IMG/VR virus record: IMGVR_UViG_2728369181_000006
Location: 1 to 44,578 of that record
DNA from: a virus
Taxonomy: Duplodnaviria > Heunggongvirae > Uroviricota > Caudoviricetes
Direction: 5' to 3' (one strand)
DNA length: 44,578 nt
Every line of letters begins with the position of its first letter. Position 1 is the first letter of the stretch. The notes under the pieces are model-generated. The model was not told the DNA's origin. It did not search any database and worked only from the letters and a program-made list of their open reading frames with translations. The position numbers and the translations under genes were made by a program. Below, one piece after another: positions 1 to 43,160 of this stretch.

Positions 1-1131
1 CTAAGCCGCGTGCTGCGATTCAGGGTTTACAGGCTCTCCGTGGGCTAACACTGCCAGCCCGGCAGCTTTAATATTACGTGCCGCGTTAATGTCGCGATCA
101 TGGTCTGCGCCGCATTCAGGGCAGTGCCATTTACGAACATTAAGAGGCATTTTTTGCATGGTGAAACCGCAGCAACTACAGCATTTTGAGGACGGTAAAT
201 ACTGGTCAATGGCGACCACTGACCGCCCGGCCCATTTGCCTTTGTACTGGAGCTGGCGAACAAGTTCGCTCCAGCCTGCGTCAGCTATTGCTTTAGACAG
301 CTTCGGGTTGCGGATCATGTTTTTCACCTTGAGGGATTCGACGCAAACAACTTGGTTTTCGTTAATCAGTTTGCGGGACAACTTGTGCAGATTGTCCATC
401 CGGCAATCGGCGATTTTCGCGTGGAGTCGGGCGACCTTTAAGCGGGCTTTAATACGGTTTCTTGAGCCTTTTTGCTTCCTGCTTAAACGTCGCTGTAGCA
501 GCGTTAATCGCTTCGCATATTTAGCGGTGTGGCGGGGATTGTCGGTTTTGAATCCGGTATCGGTGACGAATAAATCTTTTAAGCCCACATCAATGCCGAC
601 CGTTTTAGCGGTAACAGGCATTGATACAGGTTCAAACTCACACAGGCAGGAAACAAAGTACCTGCCAGCGCTATCTCTGGAAATGGTAACGGTTGACGGC
701 GCAGATGGTAATTCTCGACTCCAGCGAACATCCAGCGGCGACTTGCTCTTTGCTATATACAACTCGCCGTCACGGTGTTTAAACGCGCTGGCAGTGAACT
801 CAGCCACCTGTTTGTGCCGTTTGCTTTTGAAAGCCGGATATGCAGCTCGTCCGGCAAAGAAGTTAGCAAAGGCGGCTTGTTGGTGGCGCAACGACTGCTG
901 GAGGGGAACGCAGGAAACATCATTCAGCCATATGTATTCAGGCTCTTTTTTGAGCGCCGTAAGGCGAGCGTTGGCCTGTAGATAACCGATCTTTTCTTTT
1001 CGCTCGTAGTACGCATCGGTACGCCAACGAAGGATGGAATTGTAGACGAAGCGCACACAGCCAAACGTCTGAGCTAAAAGCTCAGCCTGCTCAGTTGTCG
1101 GGTAAAACCGGTATTTATATGCGCGTTTCAT
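1..1131 (-). CDS. tnpB: IS200/IS605-family TnpB (OrfB) RNA-guided nuclease/transposase accessory protein, 376 aa
   Basis: Full-length minus-strand ORF with ATG at 1131 and stop at 1-3; N-terminus MKRAYKYRFYPT and C-terminal zinc-finger region CCGFTMQ...HCPECGADHDRDINAARNI are typical of TnpB. No tnpA in window. Confidence 0.85.
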   Translation of the reverse strand: MKRAYKYRFYPTTEQAELLAQTFGCVRFVYNSILRWRTDAYYERKEKIGYLQANARLTALKKEPEYIWLNDVSCVPLQQSLRHQQAAFANFFAGRAAYPAFKSKRHKQVAEFTASAFKHRDGELYIAKSKSPLDVRWSRELPSAPSTVTISRDSAGRYFVSCLCEFEPVSMPVTAKTVGIDVGLKDLFVTDTGFKTDNPRHTAKYAKRLTLLQRRLSRKQKGSRNRIKARLKVARLHAKIADCRMDNLHKLSRKLINENQVVCVESLKVKNMIRNPKLSKAIADAGWSELVRQLQYKGKWAGRSVVAIDQYLPSSKCCSCCGFTMQKMPLNVRKWHCPECGADHDRDINAARNIKAAGLAVLAHGEPVNPESQHAA

Positions 1132-5971: not shown

Positions 5972-5985
5972 CGGTGGGTTTTATT
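5957..5985. terminator. Bidirectional rho-independent terminator
   Basis: Sequence aaaaaa cccacc tgac ggtggg ttttatt; serves convergent mnt (+) and the 140-aa gene (-). Confidence 0.65.
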
Positions 5986-6406
5986 AGTGCTTGTATAGCT
6001 TGAACTCCCTGTCGAGCCATAAGACATAAAAAGTGGCTCCTATCTTATAACCAACCATAGGTGCCTTAGAGCAAAATCTGAACGCAATGAAATCCACATC
6101 TTGAGTAACATGCTTAGGAATCGGAGCCTTTATCGCGTTTCTGGCAATTTTTTCCGTCCCAAGCCCGTGTTTATCAGATTTTCGTATCTCATCCCATGAC
6201 ATCTGACTTAACCTGAACAGCCTATCTGCAAATGCTGCCTTTTCATGCTTTTGGCAGCAATCTAGGCAATACCCCTTTTGTAGGTATCTAAGAGAAAATA
6301 CAGGCGGACTTTTGTCTACATCATGAGATTCGTGATGGATAGAGAGGCCAACAGTAGCAGAGCTCTCTTTATCCCTCTGTTTTATTCTTCCCTTAACTCT
6401 AGGCAT
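5984..6406 (-). CDS. Hypothetical 140-aa protein, candidate toxin partner of the Panacea-domain protein
   Basis: ATG 5 nt after the stop of the upstream Panacea-domain gene; basic protein with C-terminus ...GYKIGATFYVLWLDREFKLYKH loosely reminiscent of RelE/ParE-fold toxins. No confident family assignment. Confidence 0.45.
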   Translation of the reverse strand: MPRVKGRIKQRDKESSATVGLSIHHESHDVDKSPPVFSLRYLQKGYCLDCCQKHEKAAFADRLFRLSQMSWDEIRKSDKHGLGTEKIARNAIKAPIPKHVTQDVDFIAFRFCSKAPMVGYKIGATFYVLWLDREFKLYKH

Positions 6407-6411
6407 ACACG

Positions 6412-6861
6412 TCAGTTAATTAACGTTTTGAAAAAACCTTTCATAGAATCAAGTGTGATTTCTTGGCTAACCGCACCCTCAATGTAAGCATCTTTCCATG
6501 GCTGCTCTTCGTGAGTCATATTGCGCAGTTTCCAGGCAGAAAACTGACCATAAACTTTATACACCTCATCCAGCAATTCAATTTCATCTTCACTGAATTT
6601 TTTAGCGTCAAAGTTTTCTGGCGCAAGTAAAGCTCCGTTACCACAGTCCCTATATTTACGATACAATTCAGGAACTACTGGCCCATGCATCCAGGCTTCA
6701 ATTTTCTCATTAAATAGCGGCTTACCCAGAAGAACCAGAGAAAACCCTTGGGCATAATACGTCAACTTCTGAATTTTTAGGTTAGAGATAATGTCGCCAC
6801 TTTCTTCATCGCAATGCGCCAAGAAGTAGTCGGCGACATCAAAACAAGTGAGCATAAACAT
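6412..6861 (-). CDS. Panacea-domain (DUF4065, SocA/PanA-like) putative antitoxin, 149 aa
   Basis: Motif KIQKLTYYAQGFSLVLLGKPLF...EAWMHGPVVPELYRKY matches the DUF4065 signature as recalled; ATG start with GGAGGT RBS. Confidence 0.7.
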   Translation of the reverse strand: MFMLTCFDVADYFLAHCDEESGDIISNLKIQKLTYYAQGFSLVLLGKPLFNEKIEAWMHGPVVPELYRKYRDCGNGALLAPENFDAKKFSEDEIELLDEVYKVYGQFSAWKLRNMTHEEQPWKDAYIEGAVSQEITLDSMKGFFKTLIN

Positions 6862-7229: not shown

Positions 7230-7724
7230 GTGTCTGATTCTATGAGTTACGCTGTGCTAGTTGCCGCAACTCTATTTCTGGGGATAGGGTTGCAGATTGC
7301 GTGGTTCTTTTTTTCTAGTTTTATTAAACGCAAAAGAATTGAATCAAGGATATCTGAGATTTCTATTGCTATAGGGAAAAATGCTGAAAATCCAGAGAAT
7401 GATGCCTGCGCACTGAATTACCTTAAAGAAAAGTTTTCCCCTGAAAAATTTGAAAATAGAATTACTGATGCTCTTGGATTGGTAATATCAGTAATTCATA
7501 TGCCACTAAGTTTGCTGATAACAGTGTGGTACTTCGCCATGATCGCCGGAAGAATATTTGGTTTCATGAATATAGATCCTGTAGTTCTTTGGGTTCCAAT
7601 GATACTGCAATTGTTGTTAAGCTTTGCTATCTTTATTTTTTCTGTTTTTATAAAAATTGTCTTCGGAAGATACCCCGGAGAAGCGAAGGGATTTAATAAA
7701 GAATTCATAAAAACTATAAAATAA
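7230..7724 (+). CDS. Inner-membrane protein, putative superinfection-exclusion protein (SieA-like by position)
   Basis: GTG start 5 nt after AAGGAGG; three predicted hydrophobic helices; sits between the gp16-like gene and immI, where P22 carries sieA. Confidence 0.4.
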
Positions 7725-7746: not shown

Positions 7747-9573
7747 CTACTGCCGGGTAGCTTCGTTAACTAAGAGCGGGCGCACGGCAGTAGCCGCCTG
7801 ATTTAGCGCTCTTTCATAAGCTGGCGTTCCAGCTTTAGTGTTTGCCAGACGTAAGAGCGCATTCCTTGCTGCTTTGGATTCATACAAGCGCATCATTGCA
7901 CCGAAACCAGCCTCAAGCCCCATTGATATGCCAAGAGTCGTAGTTGCGCCAATCGTCCTTATCCTGTTGGCTTGCGATTGCCCCGTCTGAGTTACTACAT
8001 TTGCGGTGTCTGATCTTGCTGTTTGCTGTAGAACTTCATGAAGAGCATCAAGTTCTTTCATGTGCTTTCCAGAAAAAATAGTGTTGTAAATTTCACCGCC
8101 TGACTGAGATTTCAGCTTATTAACTTCCGTGATGAACTTGGCTGGAGAGTCACCGGCCTTTTCCGCTATTTTGCTGACGTAAGCTGCACGCATAGCATCT
8201 TTCCCTTTATCATCCAATGCGCTCCAGATTCGTTTCACGTCAGATGGTTTTCTGCTTAATACAACAGTATTTATAAGTTCAGGACTGGCTTCACTGCTTG
8301 CCTTGTTGAGCTTGTTAGCAATGTTTTTATTAAGCACCTTATTATAAACGTTTGCATAATCGGAGTTTGCTTTAAGGTATTTTGCTGCGTCTGATGCACC
8401 GAGGTTTTTTGCAACTGCGTTACGAAGGTCTTTTGACATTGCATTCTCTACCATATTGGTAGCTGCTTTTGCCTGGTTGGGGAAGACCATAGCATCCCCC
8501 TGAACATTAGATCTAAATGCTGTTCTGTGCTGACGCAGGAGATCAAACGTAACATCCAAATCAGTTGCAGGGTTTGCTAATTCTTCACGTAGGTTACGCA
8601 AGGATGTAAGCAGGCTTTGATTGGCAGACGTCCCAAGCCGTTCCTGTCTTGCGATCGCTGTATTCAGAGCATTCATGGTATTTGTGGTATCAACTGCGGC
8701 ATTACCCATTTTATTGGTGACGTCATTGATAACAGCGCCAGCGGCATCCTTCCGTCCCCTTAACGTGGTGGTCAGAGATTTCACCACATCATCAGGGTTG
8801 TACTCACCAAAACGGTCAAAATAATTGCTTACCAGCTTACTACGCGTTGCATATTGCTCCGCTCGCTTTGAGCCTGTCCCGAGCAAAGCCCCCTCAGCAT
8901 CCTGAGTAAGTCCGCGAGTGAAAGCATTTTTCGGCGGGATAACATCAGATGTCATTGGTGTCACGCCCATCGATTCTGATGTGGCAATTTTCTTCGCCAC
9001 TTCTGGCGCAATATCACCTTTTATAGCCGTTATTCCACGCCCTATTCCCTTTGCTGCTGCGGAAAGAACACCCTGAGCGGCAAGGTTAACTCCGGCATTT
9101 TTAGCTGCATTTTGTGCGAAATCACCTTTCTGATTTGCGGCCTCTGCCAGTGATCCAATAGCCATGCTTCCTGCCGTTCCAACTCCTGGAACTAAATACC
9201 CGCCAATTGTTTCTCCAGCTTGAGCGTAAGGGTCTGTCGGTCGATCGACTGGACGATAGACATCATCCAATACTTTTGGCCCACCAAGCCCCTGACTGAT
9301 TGCATTAATCAGACTTGCGCCACCCTGCAATACGTCAAATGGTATGTTTACCAGACCACGACCAGCCTGTTCTGCAATTTGCCCTGCACTTTGACCACCA
9401 GTGAGCCAGTCAGTAGCTTTTCCCACCAGAGATTGTTCTTCTGGCTGCGATTGGTTTTGAGTGGATTGATCACCAGAAGACAGCATCTGAGCAATGCGAC
9501 GTGCTCCCTCAGTATCGCCGGCAGCATCAGCATTCCTTAACGCCGTCATCAACTGTTCACGACTATAGGCCAT
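7747..9573 (-). CDS. Ejection (injection) protein, P22 gp16-like, 608 aa
   Basis: Size and position after the gp20-like gene; Ala/Gly-rich; ATG start overlaps the upstream stop. Confidence 0.75.
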
Positions 9574-10859: not shown

Positions 10860-11572
10860 CAGAATAATCCTCCTAAAAATCCACCAAACATGTTGGTGAA
10901 AGAGTTAACATCCTGAGATGCACCATTACCTAATGATGAGTTAGCGCTGGCTGCCGTCTGCCATGGTAAGGCTTTTTGCGCCCCCCTGATTTGCCCTGAT
11001 TCACCTATAAGTGACGTTAAAACATTTGAATTATTTGCCGATGCCGCACTACCCATACCAGCAGCAGTTAACCCAACATTCGTTAACCCCATTAACTGGT
11101 TATACATATCCTGCTGCTCTGCTGTCTTCATGGAAAGATATTGCTGGCCTAATTGAGGGGCAATAGAAGCCAGCATATTTCCAGTAGCCGTTGACCCAAG
11201 ACCGCCTGTAGCTTCAGCAGATGCAAGCCCACTATAACGAGCCTGATCATTTAGGAGTTTGAATTCTTGCGAATTAAAGTAGTCTCCTAATAATTTGTTT
11301 CGATCAATAGGAATGCCAGCAAGCTTTTGCAAACGCGGTAAAGCTGATTCGCCAACTTCACGATAAGGTTTTCCAAACGCTATCTGCTGCTGATACATTT
11401 GCTCCTGAAGGTTTTGCTGCCTGTCATTAGCTTTTTTGTACTCTTTGCTCGCAGAATTGGCACCTATTCCACCAAGTATCCCGCTGGCAGCATTTGTTAC
11501 ACCTTTAATTGCTCCGCCCATGATATTCCCCCGGATCACGCCACATAATAAAAAAGGCGCTTTCGCGCCCAT
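10859..11572 (-). CDS. Ejection protein, P22 gp7-like (alternative start at 11521)
   Basis: Synteny; Gly/Ala-rich N-terminus; overlaps the upstream gp14-like gene. Confidence 0.65.
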   Translation of the reverse strand: MGAKAPFLLCGVIRGNIMGGAIKGVTNAASGILGGIGANSASKEYKKANDRQQNLQEQMYQQQIAFGKPYREVGESALPRLQKLAGIPIDRNKLLGDYFNSQEFKLLNDQARYSGLASAEATGGLGSTATGNMLASIAPQLGQQYLSMKTAEQQDMYNQLMGLTNVGLTAAGMGSAASANNSNVLTSLIGESGQIRGAQKALPWQTAASANSSLGNGASQDVNSFTNMFGGFLGGLF

Positions 11573-11894
11573 CTACAGTCCTTAGGGTTTGTAACGTTCG
11601 CTCACCAAACCCCATTCTCCTGGCATAGTTGCATACTCTTGGCCTGTCGCTGATTATTACCGCCCGCAATTTATGGTGGCCAAACATTTTAAGAATTGAT
11701 TCACCAGCTTTTCTGCACTCACTCCATCTTCGTTTATCCATTGCAACATGGATGTCATAGAAGCCTGATTGTTTCACTATGGCAAATACGCAACACCCAT
11801 CCCACAAATAATAGTTAGCCCCCGGATCAATCCACGAGCTAACTCCCCACAATCTCATTAATTGTGAGCCAGTAATAGCGTCTATGTTTGTCAT
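11505..11894 (-). CDS. P22 gp14-like virion assembly protein, 129 aa
   Basis: Position between tail needle and gp7 as in P22/Sf6; ATGA overlap with needle gene. Confidence 0.5.
11549..11570 (-). terminator. Terminator-like hairpin embedded in the 3' end of the gp14-like gene
   Basis: Minus strand ggcgc gaaa gcgcc followed by UUUUUUAUU. Confidence 0.3.

Positions 11895-14740: not shown

Positions 14741-14763
<23 letters not shown>
14263..14763 (-). CDS. Tail accessory protein, P22 gp4-like, 166 aa
   Basis: [21 protein letters not shown]...LTDVEPQSM closely matches the P22 gp4 N-terminus; the ORF-track N-terminal SQ-repeat extension is not part of the protein. Confidence 0.85.
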
Positions 14764-14995
<232 letters not shown>

Positions 14996-15009
14996 GCTTG
15001 TCTCCAGAT

Positions 15010-15031
15010 AAAAAAGGGAGCCGAAGCTCCC
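15010..15031 (-). terminator. Rho-independent terminator immediately after the coat protein gene
   Basis: Minus strand gggagc uucg gcuccc followed by UUUUUUAU. Confidence 0.55.
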
Positions 15032-15039
15032 TCTGGTTA

Positions 15040-16335
15040 TCACGCGGTCTGGTTAGGCAGACCAACACCAATTGCCTCTGGTCGTACAGCACATGCTGAA
15101 TACCACACAGCAATACGGCACTTACCAGACAGAGTGTTGATATCACCCTGCGTTGCGAAGATGCCGTTAACACCAATGCCAGGAATGCTGAAGGAAGACG
15201 TTTTCATGCCAGCAAACAGTTCATGGGTTACCGGGATAGGCTGAGACAGCAGTCGGATTGAGTCATCAGCCCAGAACACGTTAGCTGTGGTTGTTGCCAC
15301 GTTCAGAACGTTTACCGGAGTGGTATCAGCAAGAGAGGTGTTTACGTTAGCGTAAGCCTTCTCTTCTTTTGTCAGTGACGCGTCATCCAGTGCAATCGGC
15401 TTCGGCGTGATTTCGATGTGAGTACCATCGATCACACGGGTGATTGAGAAAGTCGCATCATCAGTCAGCACGTTCTTCGCCATCTGAGACAGGAATTTCA
15501 CACCAGTGAAGCTGATTTTGTCGCCGCGCTTAAACCCGGTGGTGGAGGATACGGTCACCGTTGCAACACGGTTGTCGACGTTCTCTTTGTTACCATCGGT
15601 ATCAAGGGTGTATGCCTGAGGCTTAAACTTCTGCGCACCAGAAACAGTTACACCAGTAGCGGTTGACTTGGTAACTGCCGGAAGTTTCGGTGAGCGAAGA
15701 ATTTCATCAAAGCCAGCAATCTGACGCTGAATAGTACCGTTGCGATATGCTTCTTCAGGAACGCGCCCGAAGATGTCACCATCTACCAGGTTGCGGCCTG
15801 CTTTGCGGTAATCGTCAGGGTTCAGGAAGTAACTGATGCCCATATCGCGGTTTAGCTCACGGGAGAACATCAGGCGCTCTGCATCAGACACAAAATCCCA
15901 GCCAGACAGGCCAGTAGATGGACCAATTGCTCGGGTATCGTGAACAACAAGTGAGCCCATTTCAGTTGCCTGTTTGGCAATTGCTGACTCAATGTTATTC
16001 GCCAGTTTTTTAGCGGATGCCTGGATGCGGCGACGGTAAGAACGCTCATCACGCAGGTCATCTGCACGAAGCTCGAAGAAATCGTTATCCGGATCGCCCA
16101 TGTTGCATTTCACGGAGAGTTCCAGAATCCCTGTTGCGTTGCCAGTTAAATCCCAGCCAGTCTGGGTTGGCGCTTCCTGCTCAACAGGCATCCACACGGT
16201 GTTGCTTGAACGCTGCATGGATTCTGCCGGAGGGGTGTATTTTGTCACTTTGGACGCCATTGGCGTCAGGTTCTGGACGGTTTCGATGATTTCATCCAGA
16301 GCATACGTGACCAGTTGACCTTCATTTAATGCCAT
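15040..16335 (-). CDS. Major coat protein, P22 gp5-like, 431 aa
   Basis: Size and position after scaffold; P22-like module. Confidence 0.85.
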
Positions 16336-17259: not shown

Positions 17260-19425
17260 TTATTGAGGTGTCTCGGCTACTCCGCCGGAGGGGATTTGAA
17301 CTTGACGCATAAGATTCGCGAAATCCATGCGTTGTGAATGAGTCTGGTCTGCATCTTTAAGAAGCAGCTCAGCGTTAGCACGAGCATCTTTGCTGCGCTG
17401 TTGCTGGAATTGACCTACGAGCTTGAGGTACTCACGCAGTTCTGCCTGCTTGTCGAGGTCCATATTGTTGAAGATTTCTGCAATCTTCGCGGCGTTGAGT
17501 TGGTTTTGGGCTTCAACCTTGGCGGCTTCAACCTGAATCTGCGCCTGTTGGTTCTCTGCCTTGAGCAATTCAGCCTGACCTTGCAGAAGGATACCCTGCG
17601 CCTGAATTTGCTCTGCTGATGGCTGCTGCGGCTGTTGTTGTGCCTGCTGCACCATCTCCATCTCTTCAGGTGTTTCTGGTTTCTTCAGCCCCATCATCAC
17701 CAGTTGCTTGTTCGCGTACTCTCGCATCATCTCGACGCCTTTACCGTCAAGCAGCGTGAAGTATTGCAGCATCAGCATCTGGAACTCTGGAGTACCTTGC
17801 GGAACCTTGGTGAGCAACTCCTGAATCTCTGCGCGGTTCTGTTCCTTCATACTCTGGAAGGATGGTCCTACGTCTGTATAGCACTCATAGCGACCGCGAA
17901 TGTCGTTGAGTGTGACCACATTGCCGGACTGGTAATCGACAACTTGCGCATAGAGTTGAATGTCTTTCTCGCTTCCATCTTCAAGTGTCAGCGTTACATG
18001 ACGAGGAACGTCATAAATATCGTTGACCATTGAGGCATAAATCTCGCCATCACGTCGCATTGCGGTAGCCAGGTTATCCTGAAACACGTATGTCTCAAGG
18101 TCTGCCCGCATGTTAAGTTGATTGACGGTATCGAAAGCGACCTGACCATTTGCCGCCTGCGCATCCACGCCAAGACTAGCCACTTCTTTCACTGCGTTGG
18201 TGGCAGCCTCAAGCATGTAAGCGTTGGCTTGCGGCACTTCAGGGTTTTCCATGTAGGAGATTGGACCAATCGGCAGGTCGTTACCGTTTTCATCAGTCCT
18301 GTTCTGGAGATAGTACGGATAGTCATCATTTCCACCGTACATGTATTCGTAGCCTTCGATTTGCTCAGGGAAGAAGGTCGGTTTCTTCTTCGGTGAACGA
18401 GCAACAATATCGGCGTTGAATGACATGATCATGTTACGAAGGCGTTGACCGTCTTTCGTCAGCCTTACCACTCCTTCGTAGCACTCCTTGTCACCAGCGA
18501 ATGACCATTCGCCATACACTGGAACGATTGGAATATGCTCTCCGGCTATCTTCTCGCGGTCTTTCAGTATCTGCGTGCAGGTGATGATCGACTTATACAC
18601 ACGCCGACGCTTCACCTTGCGCTCTGCTACCTTAATGAATCCACGATTAGCCAGGTCGTCGATGACGTCTTTGATATCCTGCTGGTAATAGCTGACCGGC
18701 TCACCTGTCAGCGGGTCGCGGTAGATGAAGACCTTCTCTTTCTTCTCTTCGACCTCGTAATACTCAGCGACGTAGACGACATCATTCGATACCCACGGAA
18801 ACAGCCATGTGTCGTTCGGATTCTGGAAAGATGGCAGGGTGTCCGGATCAATACCGTAATCCTCTGCGAACTCTTTCCAGCCATTGCGTGACAAGGCGTT
18901 AATCACCGTGCAGTGCTTAGCGTCGCTCTTATCCATCTGCTTGCTATTGGCGTCCCATATGACGTGTGAGCAGGCTTCATGGATTGGAAGGCGTCGAATT
19001 ACCTGATTGTTGCTTGTTGGATCGTTGTCTTCGTACTGCGTGACCAGACGCCATGCACCAACTCCAGACTCTATCTGCTCACGAACGCCAACGTTAACGG
19101 CAATCTTTGCCGTGTTATGGCGCATATCAGTACGATACATCCCCATCAACACATCGGCTGCATCAGGATTAGCGCCGTCTTTGGGTCGGAAGAGAACGTC
19201 GATAGGGTTCCGGCGCATCTCTGCGACCAGTTTCCTGACCACCGGGCGAACAACATCGAATTGTCCGCGATATTGCAGGGTGGTGTAGTTTGATAGCCAG
19301 TCATCCCATTGCGACACTCGGCTAAAATACAGGTCATTTGTCGCCTCGGTTCTGGCTTCATCGCTCGCCATCCAGTCCGCGTCAAACTTACACAGAATGG
19401 AGTTGAGTCTGTTTTCGTCGGCCAT
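17260..19425 (-). CDS. Portal protein, P22 gp1-like, 721 aa
   Basis: Near-collinear match to P22 portal ([11 protein letters not shown]...[11 protein letters not shown]...[18 protein letters not shown]...). Confidence 0.9.
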
Positions 19426-20873
19426 TTAAGTTCTCCGTGCGATGGGCCTGATTGGGGCTGGTGTTTTCTTCTCTTTTGGCTTGTTAATATCGCCATAACG
19501 CTTAGCGTATCGGCGCATCATGTATGCATAGCGTGTGGCATCAAGAAGGTCATCGCGGGTTTTTGCTATACGCCCTTTCTCGTCACGATGGTAATAGTTA
19601 AATTCGTCGAACCAGTCTCGAAGGCCACGGAATACTTTAAATTTACCCAGCTTCATCAGGTCGTACAGTTCGAACAGGCCTGCCTCAACTGATCTAGAAC
19701 CATCAGGCCATTGCGCTGACTCATGAAGCATCTGAAACCCAGCTTCGTGGTAGTACTGCTTCTGCTGAAGTCCTGACCCTTTTTCTGTTTGTAATCCATC
19801 TTGCGGCCATGCTGTGGGTACTTTTAATGCCCATGACTTAACTGAAGACCATGCCTCTGCTGGAGATGTCTGGCTCGCTTTCCATGCTCTGGTCACATAG
19901 TACGTTTCGTTGTCGTTATCGATAACTAATTGCATGTGAGCCTGCGGGTGATCCCAGCCAAAGTCCATGCCATCAATCACCATCCAGTGGGGAGGTATCG
20001 GGAATGGATCACAGGTGATTGTGTCTTCGCTAAAGTCATAAATACGACCATGACCAAGCATAGGAATACCCTTCGTTCGCATGTCTCGTTGATGAGGAGG
20101 AAATGATGAGAGCAAATCCTCTTTCACCTTATCACTAAGGTGTGGAGCATCATCCCAGCCAACATTCATGCACGTTTGCGCCGCAGAGGGGTTATCCATG
20201 AATCCAATAACCAGTTCTGTACGTCCGTTTTCCGGTGTAAATGTCAGTATCCCACGACCACCACGACCTTTGTCTCCGGTAGCTGTACGGGTAAGAACCT
20301 GCGGGTAGATAGTTTCATCTTTTGGCTCTTCGTCGATATGAAACCAGTCAACACTGTCACCCATTAGTGCATGCTGACCTTGCGAGTAAGACCAGAACTG
20401 AATTTTCGAAAGCCGACCTGACTTATGCCTGATATAAGCAGAACGTACTGCATTTGGCGTACCAGTCATTGGTTCTGTATCAACAATCAAATCTCCAGGT
20501 ATCAGACCACCTTCCCAGCCGTCATCTGTTTTTCTGCCCAGCAACGGTGTTTGCAAAAGGTCTCTAATCTTTTCCCCTGAGTAACCTAGACACCAGATTA
20601 GCGGGGCGTGATCAAACTTATACCCCCCCATCCATCAGGGTAGTCACCTATTGCATGGATAGCGTCGATATAGGTGGCGGTATCAGTCTTGCCAACACGG
20701 TTTGCAGCAATTAATGCAACCTGAGAGTATTTACTACTTAGCGAGATGAACTTCTTTTGCCACTCGTATCTGGTATCGAAATAAGTGCGATACCTGTACA
20801 GATGCGAGCGACGTGCTTTTTCCTCCAGCAAGCGTAATAACTCAAGCTTCTGCTCCCGATCCAGATTGTGCAT
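19426..20873 (-). pseudogene. Terminase large subunit, interrupted by a frameshift in a homopolymer run (two overlapping ORFs, 91 aa and 401 aa)
   Basis: Walker A motif ANRVGKTDT in the N-terminal ORF (20598-20873); the reading frame continues in another frame from 20631 (…DGWGG / YKFDHAPLIW…); the junction lies in a C7 (minus-strand G7) run at 20623-20629; one extra G would restore a ~482-aa ORF. Confidence 0.7.
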
Positions 20874-21297
20874 TCTGCAACTCCCTAATGCGACGCTCTA
20901 TCTCTTCATCAGTCATATCGTTGATGGTTATTCGCTGGTCGTGCTGAATCTTGTCACCGAATCGACGCGTAGCAACCTTAGACGCATACCACTTCCTTGC
21001 ATCCACCTGAAGCCTGGCTTTTGCCACTGAACCTGATTCTTCTGATGCTGAGTCTGCGTACATGATGATATCTTCGGCCATTACTTCAGCCTGTATCTCT
21101 CTGGCTCGCGCGTATTGCTCGTGAAACTCATCATGTCGATGAAGCCACGCAAGAACTGTCGCAAGATGAGGAAATTCATCTCGTCTGCAAATCGCCCTCA
21201 GGCTTTCACCCTCCATCAGCAAATTGCATATCTTTTCCGCCAACTCAGGTGAGTACACTGATGGGCGACCAATTTTCTTACCAGTCGCCATATTCAT
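20842..21297 (-). CDS. Terminase small subunit, 151 aa
   Basis: First gene of the packaging/virion operon; overlaps the large terminase start. Confidence 0.75.
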   Translation of the reverse strand: MNMATGKKIGRPSVYSPELAEKICNLLMEGESLRAICRRDEFPHLATVLAWLHRHDEFHEQYARAREIQAEVMAEDIIMYADSASEESGSVAKARLQVDARKWYASKVATRRFGDKIQHDQRITINDMTDEEIERRIRELQNAQSGSGAEA

Positions 21298-22041: not shown

Positions 22042-22521
22042 TTAAATGATTTGCCAGTCTTCAGCCATCAGGTCGCCAATGGATGGAACCCATGTAGCAA
22101 GGCGGTTCTGTGAGTTTTTCAATACAAGCGTGTCATTGAAAGTTGGCTCGCCAACATATTCGCCAAAGCCATAACCCAACGCAGACGCTAATTTTTCCCC
22201 TTTCACGAGATAAACAAACTGGTCTTTCCCATTCCATCCTACCCGCTGCAAACTTTTGCCCTGTTTTAACGCTTCCATGGCCAGACCGAAACTTAGTCCT
22301 GATACAGGACGATAAGCCTTTTCGAATACTTCTTTTGGACTCCAGCTAACGTAGCCATCAAAGCGATCGGTGTTAGGTTTTCCGCCATCCAGATATTCAA
22401 CCAGATAGCCTTCGTCCTCGCCGTTTTCTCCGGCAGGAAGCTGCCAGCCACGAAAATCGTTATATGCCTGTCTCGTCATCGGAAAGGCGTTAATCAGTTT
22501 TACGCCAATATGCTGGGTCAT
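22042..22521 (-). CDS. DUF2829-like (Tad2-type) protein, 159 aa, possible anti-defence factor
   Basis: C-terminal half LKQGKSLQRVGWNGKDQFVYLVKG...WVPSIGDLMAEDWQII resembles the DUF2829 family as recalled; located in the Rz-to-terminase cargo locus. Confidence 0.45.
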   Translation of the reverse strand: MTQHIGVKLINAFPMTRQAYNDFRGWQLPAGENGEDEGYLVEYLDGGKPNTDRFDGYVSWSPKEVFEKAYRPVSGLSFGLAMEALKQGKSLQRVGWNGKDQFVYLVKGEKLASALGYGFGEYVGEPTFNDTLVLKNSQNRLATWVPSIGDLMAEDWQII

Positions 22522-41893: not shown

Positions 41894-42112
41894 ATGTACT
41901 TGACACTTCAGGAGTGGAACGCACGCCAGCGACGCCCAAGAAGCCTTGAAACAGTTCGTCGATGGGTACGCGAGTGCAGGATATTCCCACCACCGGTTAA
42001 GGACGGAAGAGAGTATTTGTTCCACGAATCAGCGGTAAAGGTTGACTTAAATCGACCAGTAACAGGTAGCCTTTTGAAGAGGATCAAAAATGGGAAGAAG
42101 GCGAAGTCATGA
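41894..42112 (+). CDS. xis: Excisionase Xis (lambda-type), 72 aa
   Basis: MYLTLQEWNARQRRPRSLETVRRWVRECRIFPPPVKDGREYLFHESAVKVDLNRP matches lambda Xis as recalled. Confidence 0.9.
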   Translation: MYLTLQEWNARQRRPRSLETVRRWVRECRIFPPPVKDGREYLFHESAVKVDLNRPVTGSLLKRIKNGKKAKS

Positions 42113-43160
42113 GCGCCGGGATTTACCCCCTAATCTTTATATAAGAAACAATGGATATTACTGCTACAGGGACCAAAGGACGGGTAAAGAGTTTGGATTA
42201 GGCCGAGACAGGAGGATAGCAATCACTGAAGCAATACAGGCCAACATTGAGTTATTTTCAGGACACAAACACAAGCCTCTGACAGCGAGAATCAACAGTG
42301 ATAATTCTGTTACGTTACATTCATGGCTTGATCGCTACGAAAAAATCCTCGCCAGCAGAGGAATCAAGCAGAAGACACTTATAAATTACATGAGCAAAAT
42401 TAAAGCAATAAGGAGGGGTCTGCCTGATGCTCCACTTGAAGACATCACCACAAAAGAAATTGCGGCAATGCTCAATGGATACATAGACGAGGGCAAGGCG
42501 GCGTCAGCCAAGTTAATCAGATCAACACTGAGCGATGCATTCCGAGAGGCAATAGCTGAAGGCCATATAACAATAAACCCGGTCGCTGCCACTCGCGCAG
42601 CAAAATCAGAGGTAAGGAGATCAAGACTTACGGCTGACGAATACCTGAAAATTTATCAAGCAGCAGAATCATCACCATGTTGGCTTAGACTTGCAATGGA
42701 ACTGGCTGTTGTTACCGGGCAGCGTGTTGGGGATTTATGCGAAATGAAGTGGTCTGATATCGTAGATGGCTATCTTTATGTCGAGCAAAGCAAAACCGGC
42801 GTAAAAATTGCCATCCCAACAACATTGCATGTTGATGCTCTTGGGATATCAATGAAGGAAACACTTGATAAATGCAAAGAGATTCTTGGCGGAGAAACCA
42901 TAATTGCATCTACTCGTCGTGAACCGCTTTCATCCGGCACAGTATCAAGGTATTTTATGCGCGCACGAAAAGCATCAGGTCTTTCCTTCGAAGGGGATCC
43001 GCCTACCTTTCACGAGTTGCGCAGTTTGTCTGCAAGACTCTATGAGAAGCAGATAAGCGATAAGTTTGCTCAACATCTTCTCGGGCATAAGTCGGACACC
43101 ATGGCATCACAGTATCGTGATGACAGAGGCAGGGAGTGGGACAAAATTGAAATCAAATAA
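42090..43160 (+). CDS. int: Integrase Int (lambda-type tyrosine recombinase), 356 aa
   Basis: MGRRRSHERRDLPPNLYIRNNGYYCYRD… matches lambda Int as recalled; catalytic R…HxxR…Y residues present; overlaps xis. Confidence 0.9.
   Translation: MGRRRSHERRDLPPNLYIRNNGYYCYRDQRTGKEFGLGRDRRIAITEAIQANIELFSGHKHKPLTARINSDNSVTLHSWLDRYEKILASRGIKQKTLINYMSKIKAIRRGLPDAPLEDITTKEIAAMLNGYIDEGKAASAKLIRSTLSDAFREAIAEGHITINPVAATRAAKSEVRRSRLTADEYLKIYQAAESSPCWLRLAMELAVVTGQRVGDLCEMKWSDIVDGYLYVEQSKTGVKIAIPTTLHVDALGISMKETLDKCKEILGGETIIASTRREPLSSGTVSRYFMRARKASGLSFEGDPPTFHELRSLSARLYEKQISDKFAQHLLGHKSDTMASQYRDDRGREWDKIEIK

Follow-up and report, generated by a model that had tools for sequence, protein, structure and literature searches.

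The large terminase gene of a P22-like Escherichia coli prophage is split in a seven-guanine tract, probably by a recent one-nucleotide deletion

Introduction

Large terminase subunits (TerL) of the P22 gp2 type carry an ATPase domain with Walker A and Walker B motifs followed by a nuclease domain, and are encoded between an Sf6-type small terminase gene and a P22-type portal gene. In P22 gene 2 mutants, procapsids and unpackaged concatemers accumulate. The terL gene analysed here, on a 44,578-nt stretch of DNA (hereafter the window), has the same domain order, the same two motifs and the same nuclease domain, and occupies the same slot; its closest orthologue in a sequenced phage is SGPHI_0010 of Sodalis phage phiSG1. 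While all homologues compared are single open reading frames (ORFs), the window gene is interrupted after residue 84 by a one-nucleotide deletion.

A large terminase gene in out-of-frame parts is also found in Streptomyces phage Hau3 and prophage StrepC.1, for which translational bypass is the candidate mechanism; the Hau3-type split is associated with a rare UUA codon and a short insert of non-coding sequence, and 3 of 100 ter genes show it (PMC10732093). In contrast, the split in the window is a plain homopolymer deletion with neither UUA codon nor insert, and bypass of the Hau3 type was rejected on these differing features. In the thymidine kinase gene of herpes simplex virus (HSV), one G more or less in a run of seven inactivates the gene, and rare, low-level frameshifting on the run can restore the frame and rescue the mutants (PMC5009743). 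The HSV case is eukaryotic, drug-selected and experimentally shown, whereas selection or rescue at terL would be hypothetical.

Results

The window terL consists of two overlapping minus-strand ORFs that meet in a run of seven G on the coding strand (C7 on the plus strand, 20623-20629), the sole G/C run of seven or more nucleotides in the window. The N-terminal ORF (20598-20873, minus strand, 91 aa) contains the Walker A P-loop (AANRVGKT) and has the C-terminus AANRVGKTDTATYIDAIHAIGDYPDGWGGISLITPR-stop. Its tail, AANRVGKTDTATYIDAIHAIGDYPDGWGG-ISLITPR-stop, passes from native to out-of-frame sequence, the fragment as a whole comprising 84 native residues (strand 1, P-loop and helix 1) and 7 out-of-frame residues (ISLITPR), with translation ending 8 codons after the frameshift at a TAA (20598-20600). 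Both broken products are on record, the 91-aa one as an exact match (WP_249545718.1). The C-terminal ORF (19426-20631, minus strand, 401 aa) lies in the -1 frame, starts at an incidental in-frame ATG with the N-terminus MGGYKFDHAPLIW, and carries the rest of the ATPase core, the Walker B motif (DWFHIDEE, or with the preceding residue VDWFHIDEE, including the catalytic Glu) and the RNaseH-like nuclease domain, so that the two ATPase motifs are divided between the fragments. The stretch on which -1 frameshifting would occur reads GGAUGGGGGGGUAUAAG.

Adding one G to the tract in silico yields a continuous 482-aa large terminase that matches Pfam Terminase_6N (E=2.3e-14) and Terminase_6C (E=6.1e-21), residues 273-480 of which match the P22 gp2 nuclease domain (PDB 4DKW, E=1.9e-80). 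The repaired protein aligns end to end, junction included, with hundreds of single-ORF terminases and is identical to a recorded E. coli protein, which argues that the split is not a chance pattern. A first-pass annotation had described two overlapping ORFs with Walker A in the N-terminal part, placed the switch point in the C7 run and predicted a 482-aa protein from eight G; the sequence bears out each of these elements, and the insertion of a G reproduces the predicted product. An active P22 gp2-type TerL is encoded by one ORF; here the frame is lost at 20623-20629 and runs into the stop at 20598-20600, and the window gene is a disrupted member (pseudogene) of this family.

The position of the break was examined on an AlphaFold (AF2) model of the repaired TerL (48 homologues; mean pLDDT of 84, and ~95 around the site). 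In the model strand 1 spans residues 51-56, the P-loop and helix 1 span 57-75, an ordered loop spans 76-91 and strand 2 spans 92-97, with Walker B on the strand formed by 177-181. The junction (83/84) falls in the ordered loop, between the Walker A helix and strand 2, and the frameshift thus severs the ATPase core: strand 1, the P-loop and helix 1 (residues 1-84) come to lie on one fragment, and the other ATPase strands, Walker B and the nuclease domain on the second.

Both genes adjoining terL are intact, and its location between a small terminase gene and a portal gene is that of the P22 gp2 type. The Sf6-type small terminase gene (20842-21297, minus strand; Pfam PF20901, E=2.4e-41) overlaps the start of terL by 32 nt, and the identical small terminase protein adjoins intact terL genes with eight G (G8). 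The P22-type portal gene (17260-19425, minus strand, 721 aa) starts 1 nt past the terL stop, and relatives encode the same 721-aa product with a PF16510 match. The prophage in the window is P22-like and essentially complete; it sits in an E. coli chromosome at the lambda attachment site, between ybhB (1240-1716) and ybhC (from 43295 onward), and has a lambda-type integrase gene at 42090-43160. Full-length late genes encode the portal (721 aa), scaffold (303 aa), coat (431 aa), gp4 adaptor, gp10 (472 aa), Sf6-type needle (317 aa), the product of a 129-aa ORF described below, gp7 (237 aa), gp20 (428 aa), a gp16-type DNA transfer protein (608 aa) and a tailspike with a head-binding domain (552 aa). 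The holin, endolysin, Rz, Q antiterminator, NinG, DnaB-type helicase and integrase genes appear intact as well. The terminase is the only visibly broken gene among the virion, lysis, replication and integration genes tested, and the initial view of an otherwise intact virion module holds, every other late gene tested being full length.

Several further features of the prophage and its flanks were recorded. An InsQ/TnpB-family RNA-guided endonuclease gene (1-1131, minus strand) adjoins ybhB in place of bioA, as in CFT073-like strains, and the left flank that includes it is 99.9% identical to CFT073, marking the host as a CFT073-like E. coli. A gene located between the lysis cassette and the terminase genes (22042-22521, minus strand) encodes a 159-aa protein in which a domain resembling Tad2 (Thoeris anti-defence 2) is recognised (E=1.8e-21); the cargo of relatives at this position differs (Rha, KilA-N, trypsin-like or gp49-like). 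A SocA/Panacea-domain antitoxin-like gene (149 aa) and the adjoining gene for a 140-aa phrog_8366 protein (5984-6861, minus strand) may form a toxin-antitoxin pair, and a SieA-like superinfection exclusion gene (164 aa; 7230-7724, plus strand) is found in the immI/moron region that separates gp16 from the tailspike. A 129-aa ORF (11505-11894, minus strand) has no Pfam match and corresponds over its full length to phrog_17333; in relatives a DUF2824 (gp14-like) gene takes this place, and several gene callers leave the ORF uncalled in related contigs, giving a gap of ~320 nt in ERZ652083 and GCA_041268505.1. The gp16-type product, encoded after gp20, is listed at 706 aa in the G7 relatives ERZ652083 and ERZ28648478, as against 608 aa in the window (7747-9573), indicating that the distal ejection-protein module differs among otherwise near-identical prophages.

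Orthologues of terL are single ORFs at 44 genome loci and in more than 4000 database proteins. Across 48 homologues W82 and G84 never change, whereas residue 83 can be E, S, D, T, K, N, C, A or G, and the homopolymer is therefore not conserved. SGPHI_0010 of phiSG1 is continuous across the junction (76-78% aa identity), and in the DNA alignment with it the window is short by exactly one base, inside the tract; a one-base gap also falls exactly in the tract in comparison with five close intact alleles. A search of genome contigs gave only relatives with at most 84% aa identity, which read through the junction without a break and vary at codon 83. With the gene as query, Megablast against sequenced phages matched only a ~110-nt stretch at the 3' end (86% identity), indicating that a close phage genome is absent among sequenced phages. 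The first-pass annotation had allowed that intact orthologues might also have a junction here; none of the orthologues examined has one. Ancient pseudogenisation as in Sodalis genomes, the best phage match being phiSG1, was ruled out since the host is E. coli and the mutation very recent.

The closest alleles differ in the state of the tract. Most close intact alleles (Salmonella Luke, ERR2071991, E. coli ET151, 2013C-4991 and GCA_050762735.1) encode W82-G83-G84 as TGG GGT GGG, followed by TAT (G4TG3). Alleles of the G8 state, reading TGG GGG GGG TAT, are present in at least five E. coli assemblies (PapM-32-1, GCA_041268505.1, GCA_040579925.1, GCA_964049275.1 and GCA_041156185.1) and show 0-1 other differences from the window gene in 1449 nt. 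That of PapM-32-1 (NZ_CP049204.1), found also in GCA_041268505.1 and others, does not differ from the window at any of the 1448 nt, nor in the small terminase gene, its one additional G giving the full 482-aa protein. The PapM-32-1 genome is a Unicycler hybrid assembly of Illumina and ONT data (PMC7643976), which makes its G8 call credible. The exact repaired protein, WP_097477649.1 in PapM-32-1, is encoded on 102 E. coli contigs, and the representative of its cluster (P0001) differs from it at S386P and N464Y. Comparison of these alleles gives a history in which G4TG3 became G8 through a synonymous T>G change (GGT>GGG) and G8 became G7 through the loss of one G. Synonymous to nonsynonymous differences from G4TG3 alleles (10:2, 14:2 and 15:5) point to purifying selection on the gene until it broke. 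The prophage of GCA_041268505.1 has its whole context in common with the window over ~20 kb, where it is separated from the G7 prophage by one SNP private to GCA_041268505.1, the additional G and the copy number of a hexanucleotide repeat. This near-identity shows that G7 is very young, and G7 copies have accumulated no secondary damage.

The G7 allele occurs, identical over all 1448 nt, in at least eight other public records (GCA_001571585.1, JGI 3300045988, which is also in IMG/VR, ERZ652083, ERZ28648478, ERZ28649860, SRR8085986, ERR3329164 and ERR4034343), the sources of which include an NCBI isolate assembly, SPAdes-type metagenome contigs, JGI, ENA and Logan. Outside terL the G7 contigs are not quite identical (up to 5 SNPs and the hexanucleotide-repeat copy number) and hence are not one dataset recycled. 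Two viral-contig searches returned only the JGI 3300045988 contig, and pattern searches of metagenome contigs, with a gapped tract pattern and a flanking pattern, gave no G7 match.

The G7 copy in ERR3329164 has different upstream genes and differs from the window at 40 positions in 4.1 kb, and it shares the portal haplotype (SNPs 18988 to 17961) of PapM-32-1, a G8 strain. Both tract lengths, G7 and G8, are therefore found with both portal haplogroups. Such a four-gamete pattern requires either recurrent slippage or recombination, and with G7 on two flanks the allele could still be moving between genomes. A search over ~20 kb for marker SNPs uniting the G7 contigs against G8 found none, so that single and recurrent origins of G7 leave the same picture here. 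The predicted N-terminal product of a +1 variant (...DGWGGV) is on record from one Logan assembly, where it is known as a protein only; the predicted G6 product was sought on record and not found. E. coli indel rates increase exponentially with homopolymer run length (PMC8510543), and this, together with the two flanks and the recorded +1 product, leads us to regard the G8 run as a slippage hotspot.

Could the strain be truly G8, with an intact terminase, and G7 be an error of sequencing or assembly? Homopolymers are classic error sites, the G8 parent is recorded roughly ten times as often (102 public contigs, compared with 3-8 for the broken fragments), and one G7 contig has a coverage of only ~9x. 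An artefact would be expected to be confined to one assembly or platform, whereas the identical G7 recurs in at least eight NCBI, JGI, ENA and Logan records from several assembly pipelines, on contigs that differ elsewhere, making an artefact very unlikely as a general explanation; that no other tested gene of the window is broken speaks against a generally error-prone assembly. We consider error improbable for the window itself, and of the three options in the first-pass annotation, error finds no support as a general account, while a genuine inactivating mutation is favoured by the repeated G7 and the documented G8 parent. The remaining option, a phase-variable tract, survives in part. A contingency switch that turns the infectivity of the prophage reversibly off and on would fit the length polymorphism (G7 and G8 with 0-1 other differences), the occurrence of both states on each of two portal haplogroups, the exact +1 product in one Logan assembly and the freedom of G7 copies from secondary damage. 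However, recombination in highly mosaic phages also yields the four-gamete pattern, and a tract kept across lineages by selection is not what the alleles show: the run arose from a single synonymous change, most close alleles are G4TG3, and distant orthologues, with E, S, D, T, K, N, C or A at residue 83, have no run at all. The hotspot part of this option therefore stands; since the tract is a recent synonymous accident missing in most alleles, there is no sign of selection maintaining it, and adaptive phase variation is very unlikely.

The other two readings would have the split gene function as it is. In one, -1 ribosomal frameshifting on G GGG GGU, or slippage of RNA polymerase, keeps the G7 phage viable. 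The N-terminal frame does contain a heptamer of the X XXY YYZ form, a -1 slip on it would restore the exact wild-type protein, HSV thymidine kinase G-run mutants provide a precedent (PMC5009743), and viability would also account for G7 on two backgrounds. The match to a slippery site is formal only, however: the 92 nt downstream contain no stimulatory structure, being no better folded than shuffled sequences (MFE of -22.8 against a shuffle mean of -20.7; z=-0.62; 45 of 200 shuffles as good), and neither the heptamer nor the two-ORF layout is conserved in any orthologue, all of which are single ORFs with a variable codon 83 and no G run. Programmed -1 frameshifting was rejected on these grounds. 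Moreover G7 is a very recent derivative of an intact gene. Frameshifting on it may provide some low-level rescue, which would then be adventitious and probably amount to far less than 1%, and functional recoding in either form is highly improbable. In the other, both fragments (91 and 401 aa) are produced and come together as an active enzyme; no native residue is missing from the pair, and the break lies in a loop. Against this, a single ATPase fold is cut, with strand 1 and the P-loop on one piece and the rest of the fold on the other, none of more than 4000 homologues has such a layout, and the 401-aa ORF starts at an incidental ATG, leaving a reassembled enzyme with a negligible likelihood.

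Discussion

We favour a genuine, heritable one-nucleotide deletion in terL of a P22-like E. coli prophage at the lambda attachment site, to which we assign a probability of roughly 85%. As the alleles show, an ancestral TGG GGT GGG became an uninterrupted G8 run through a synonymous GGT>GGG change, and the G8 allele spread into several prophage mosaics. One G was probably lost by slipped-strand mispairing during replication, as suggested by the exponential dependence of E. coli indel rates on homopolymer length. The incomplete ATPase would block DNA packaging by the terminase, and an induced prophage would be expected to replicate, build procapsids and lyse the cell while releasing no filled heads, unless a G7>G8 reversion or a -1 decoding slip on the G run, both of them rare, intervenes. 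What is established about terminases points to the same lack of packaging, as does the phenotype of P22 gene 2 mutants. As the late genes are silent in the lysogen, the mutation would be neutral to it and may represent an early step of prophage decay.

The prophage is thus likely packaging-defective and one slip away from reversion. A stronger version, in which the G7/G8(/G9) run acts as a de facto reversible switch, either by changes in the DNA itself or by leaky -1 decoding of G GGG GGU, for which HSV thymidine kinase is the model, is improbable. If it were true, G7 prophages would remain transmissible at low frequency, and the switch would explain why an 'inactivated' allele is found undecayed on two prophage backgrounds and in many human-gut and other samples.

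Under the deletion that we favour, the event is ordinary early prophage decay by slippage and not a new mechanism, and both this kind of event and the G7 allele itself are already present in public data. The prophage should be scored as packaging-defective (terL pseudogene) despite its otherwise complete appearance, which matters when one predicts which prophages of E. coli genomes and gut metagenomes are inducible and infectious. The locus also offers a clean natural example of how a silent GGT>GGG change creates a mutational liability (the G8 run) that leads to the knockout of an essential phage gene, possibly more than once; its appeal lies in the documented two-step route and in the G7/G8 polymorphism within natural populations.

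Finally, two features outside terL were noted in this prophage group. In the related prophage of E. coli ET151 (NZ_CP100996.1) the lambda-family holin gene (314-636) is flagged as frameshifted by RefSeq while the terminase is intact, a further case of single-gene decay in the group. In the window, a perfect hexanucleotide tandem repeat (TCTGGC x 6.7, 14811-14850) lies inside a small minus-strand ORF (14741-15043) between coat and gp4. Its copy number varies in near-identical prophages, with 6 nt fewer in ERZ652083, ERZ28648478 and a third contig (L070) and 18 nt more in GCA_041268505.1, so that the repeat is a second, in-frame slippage-prone locus of the prophage; the products of this ORF range from 76 to 90 aa across near-identical prophages.
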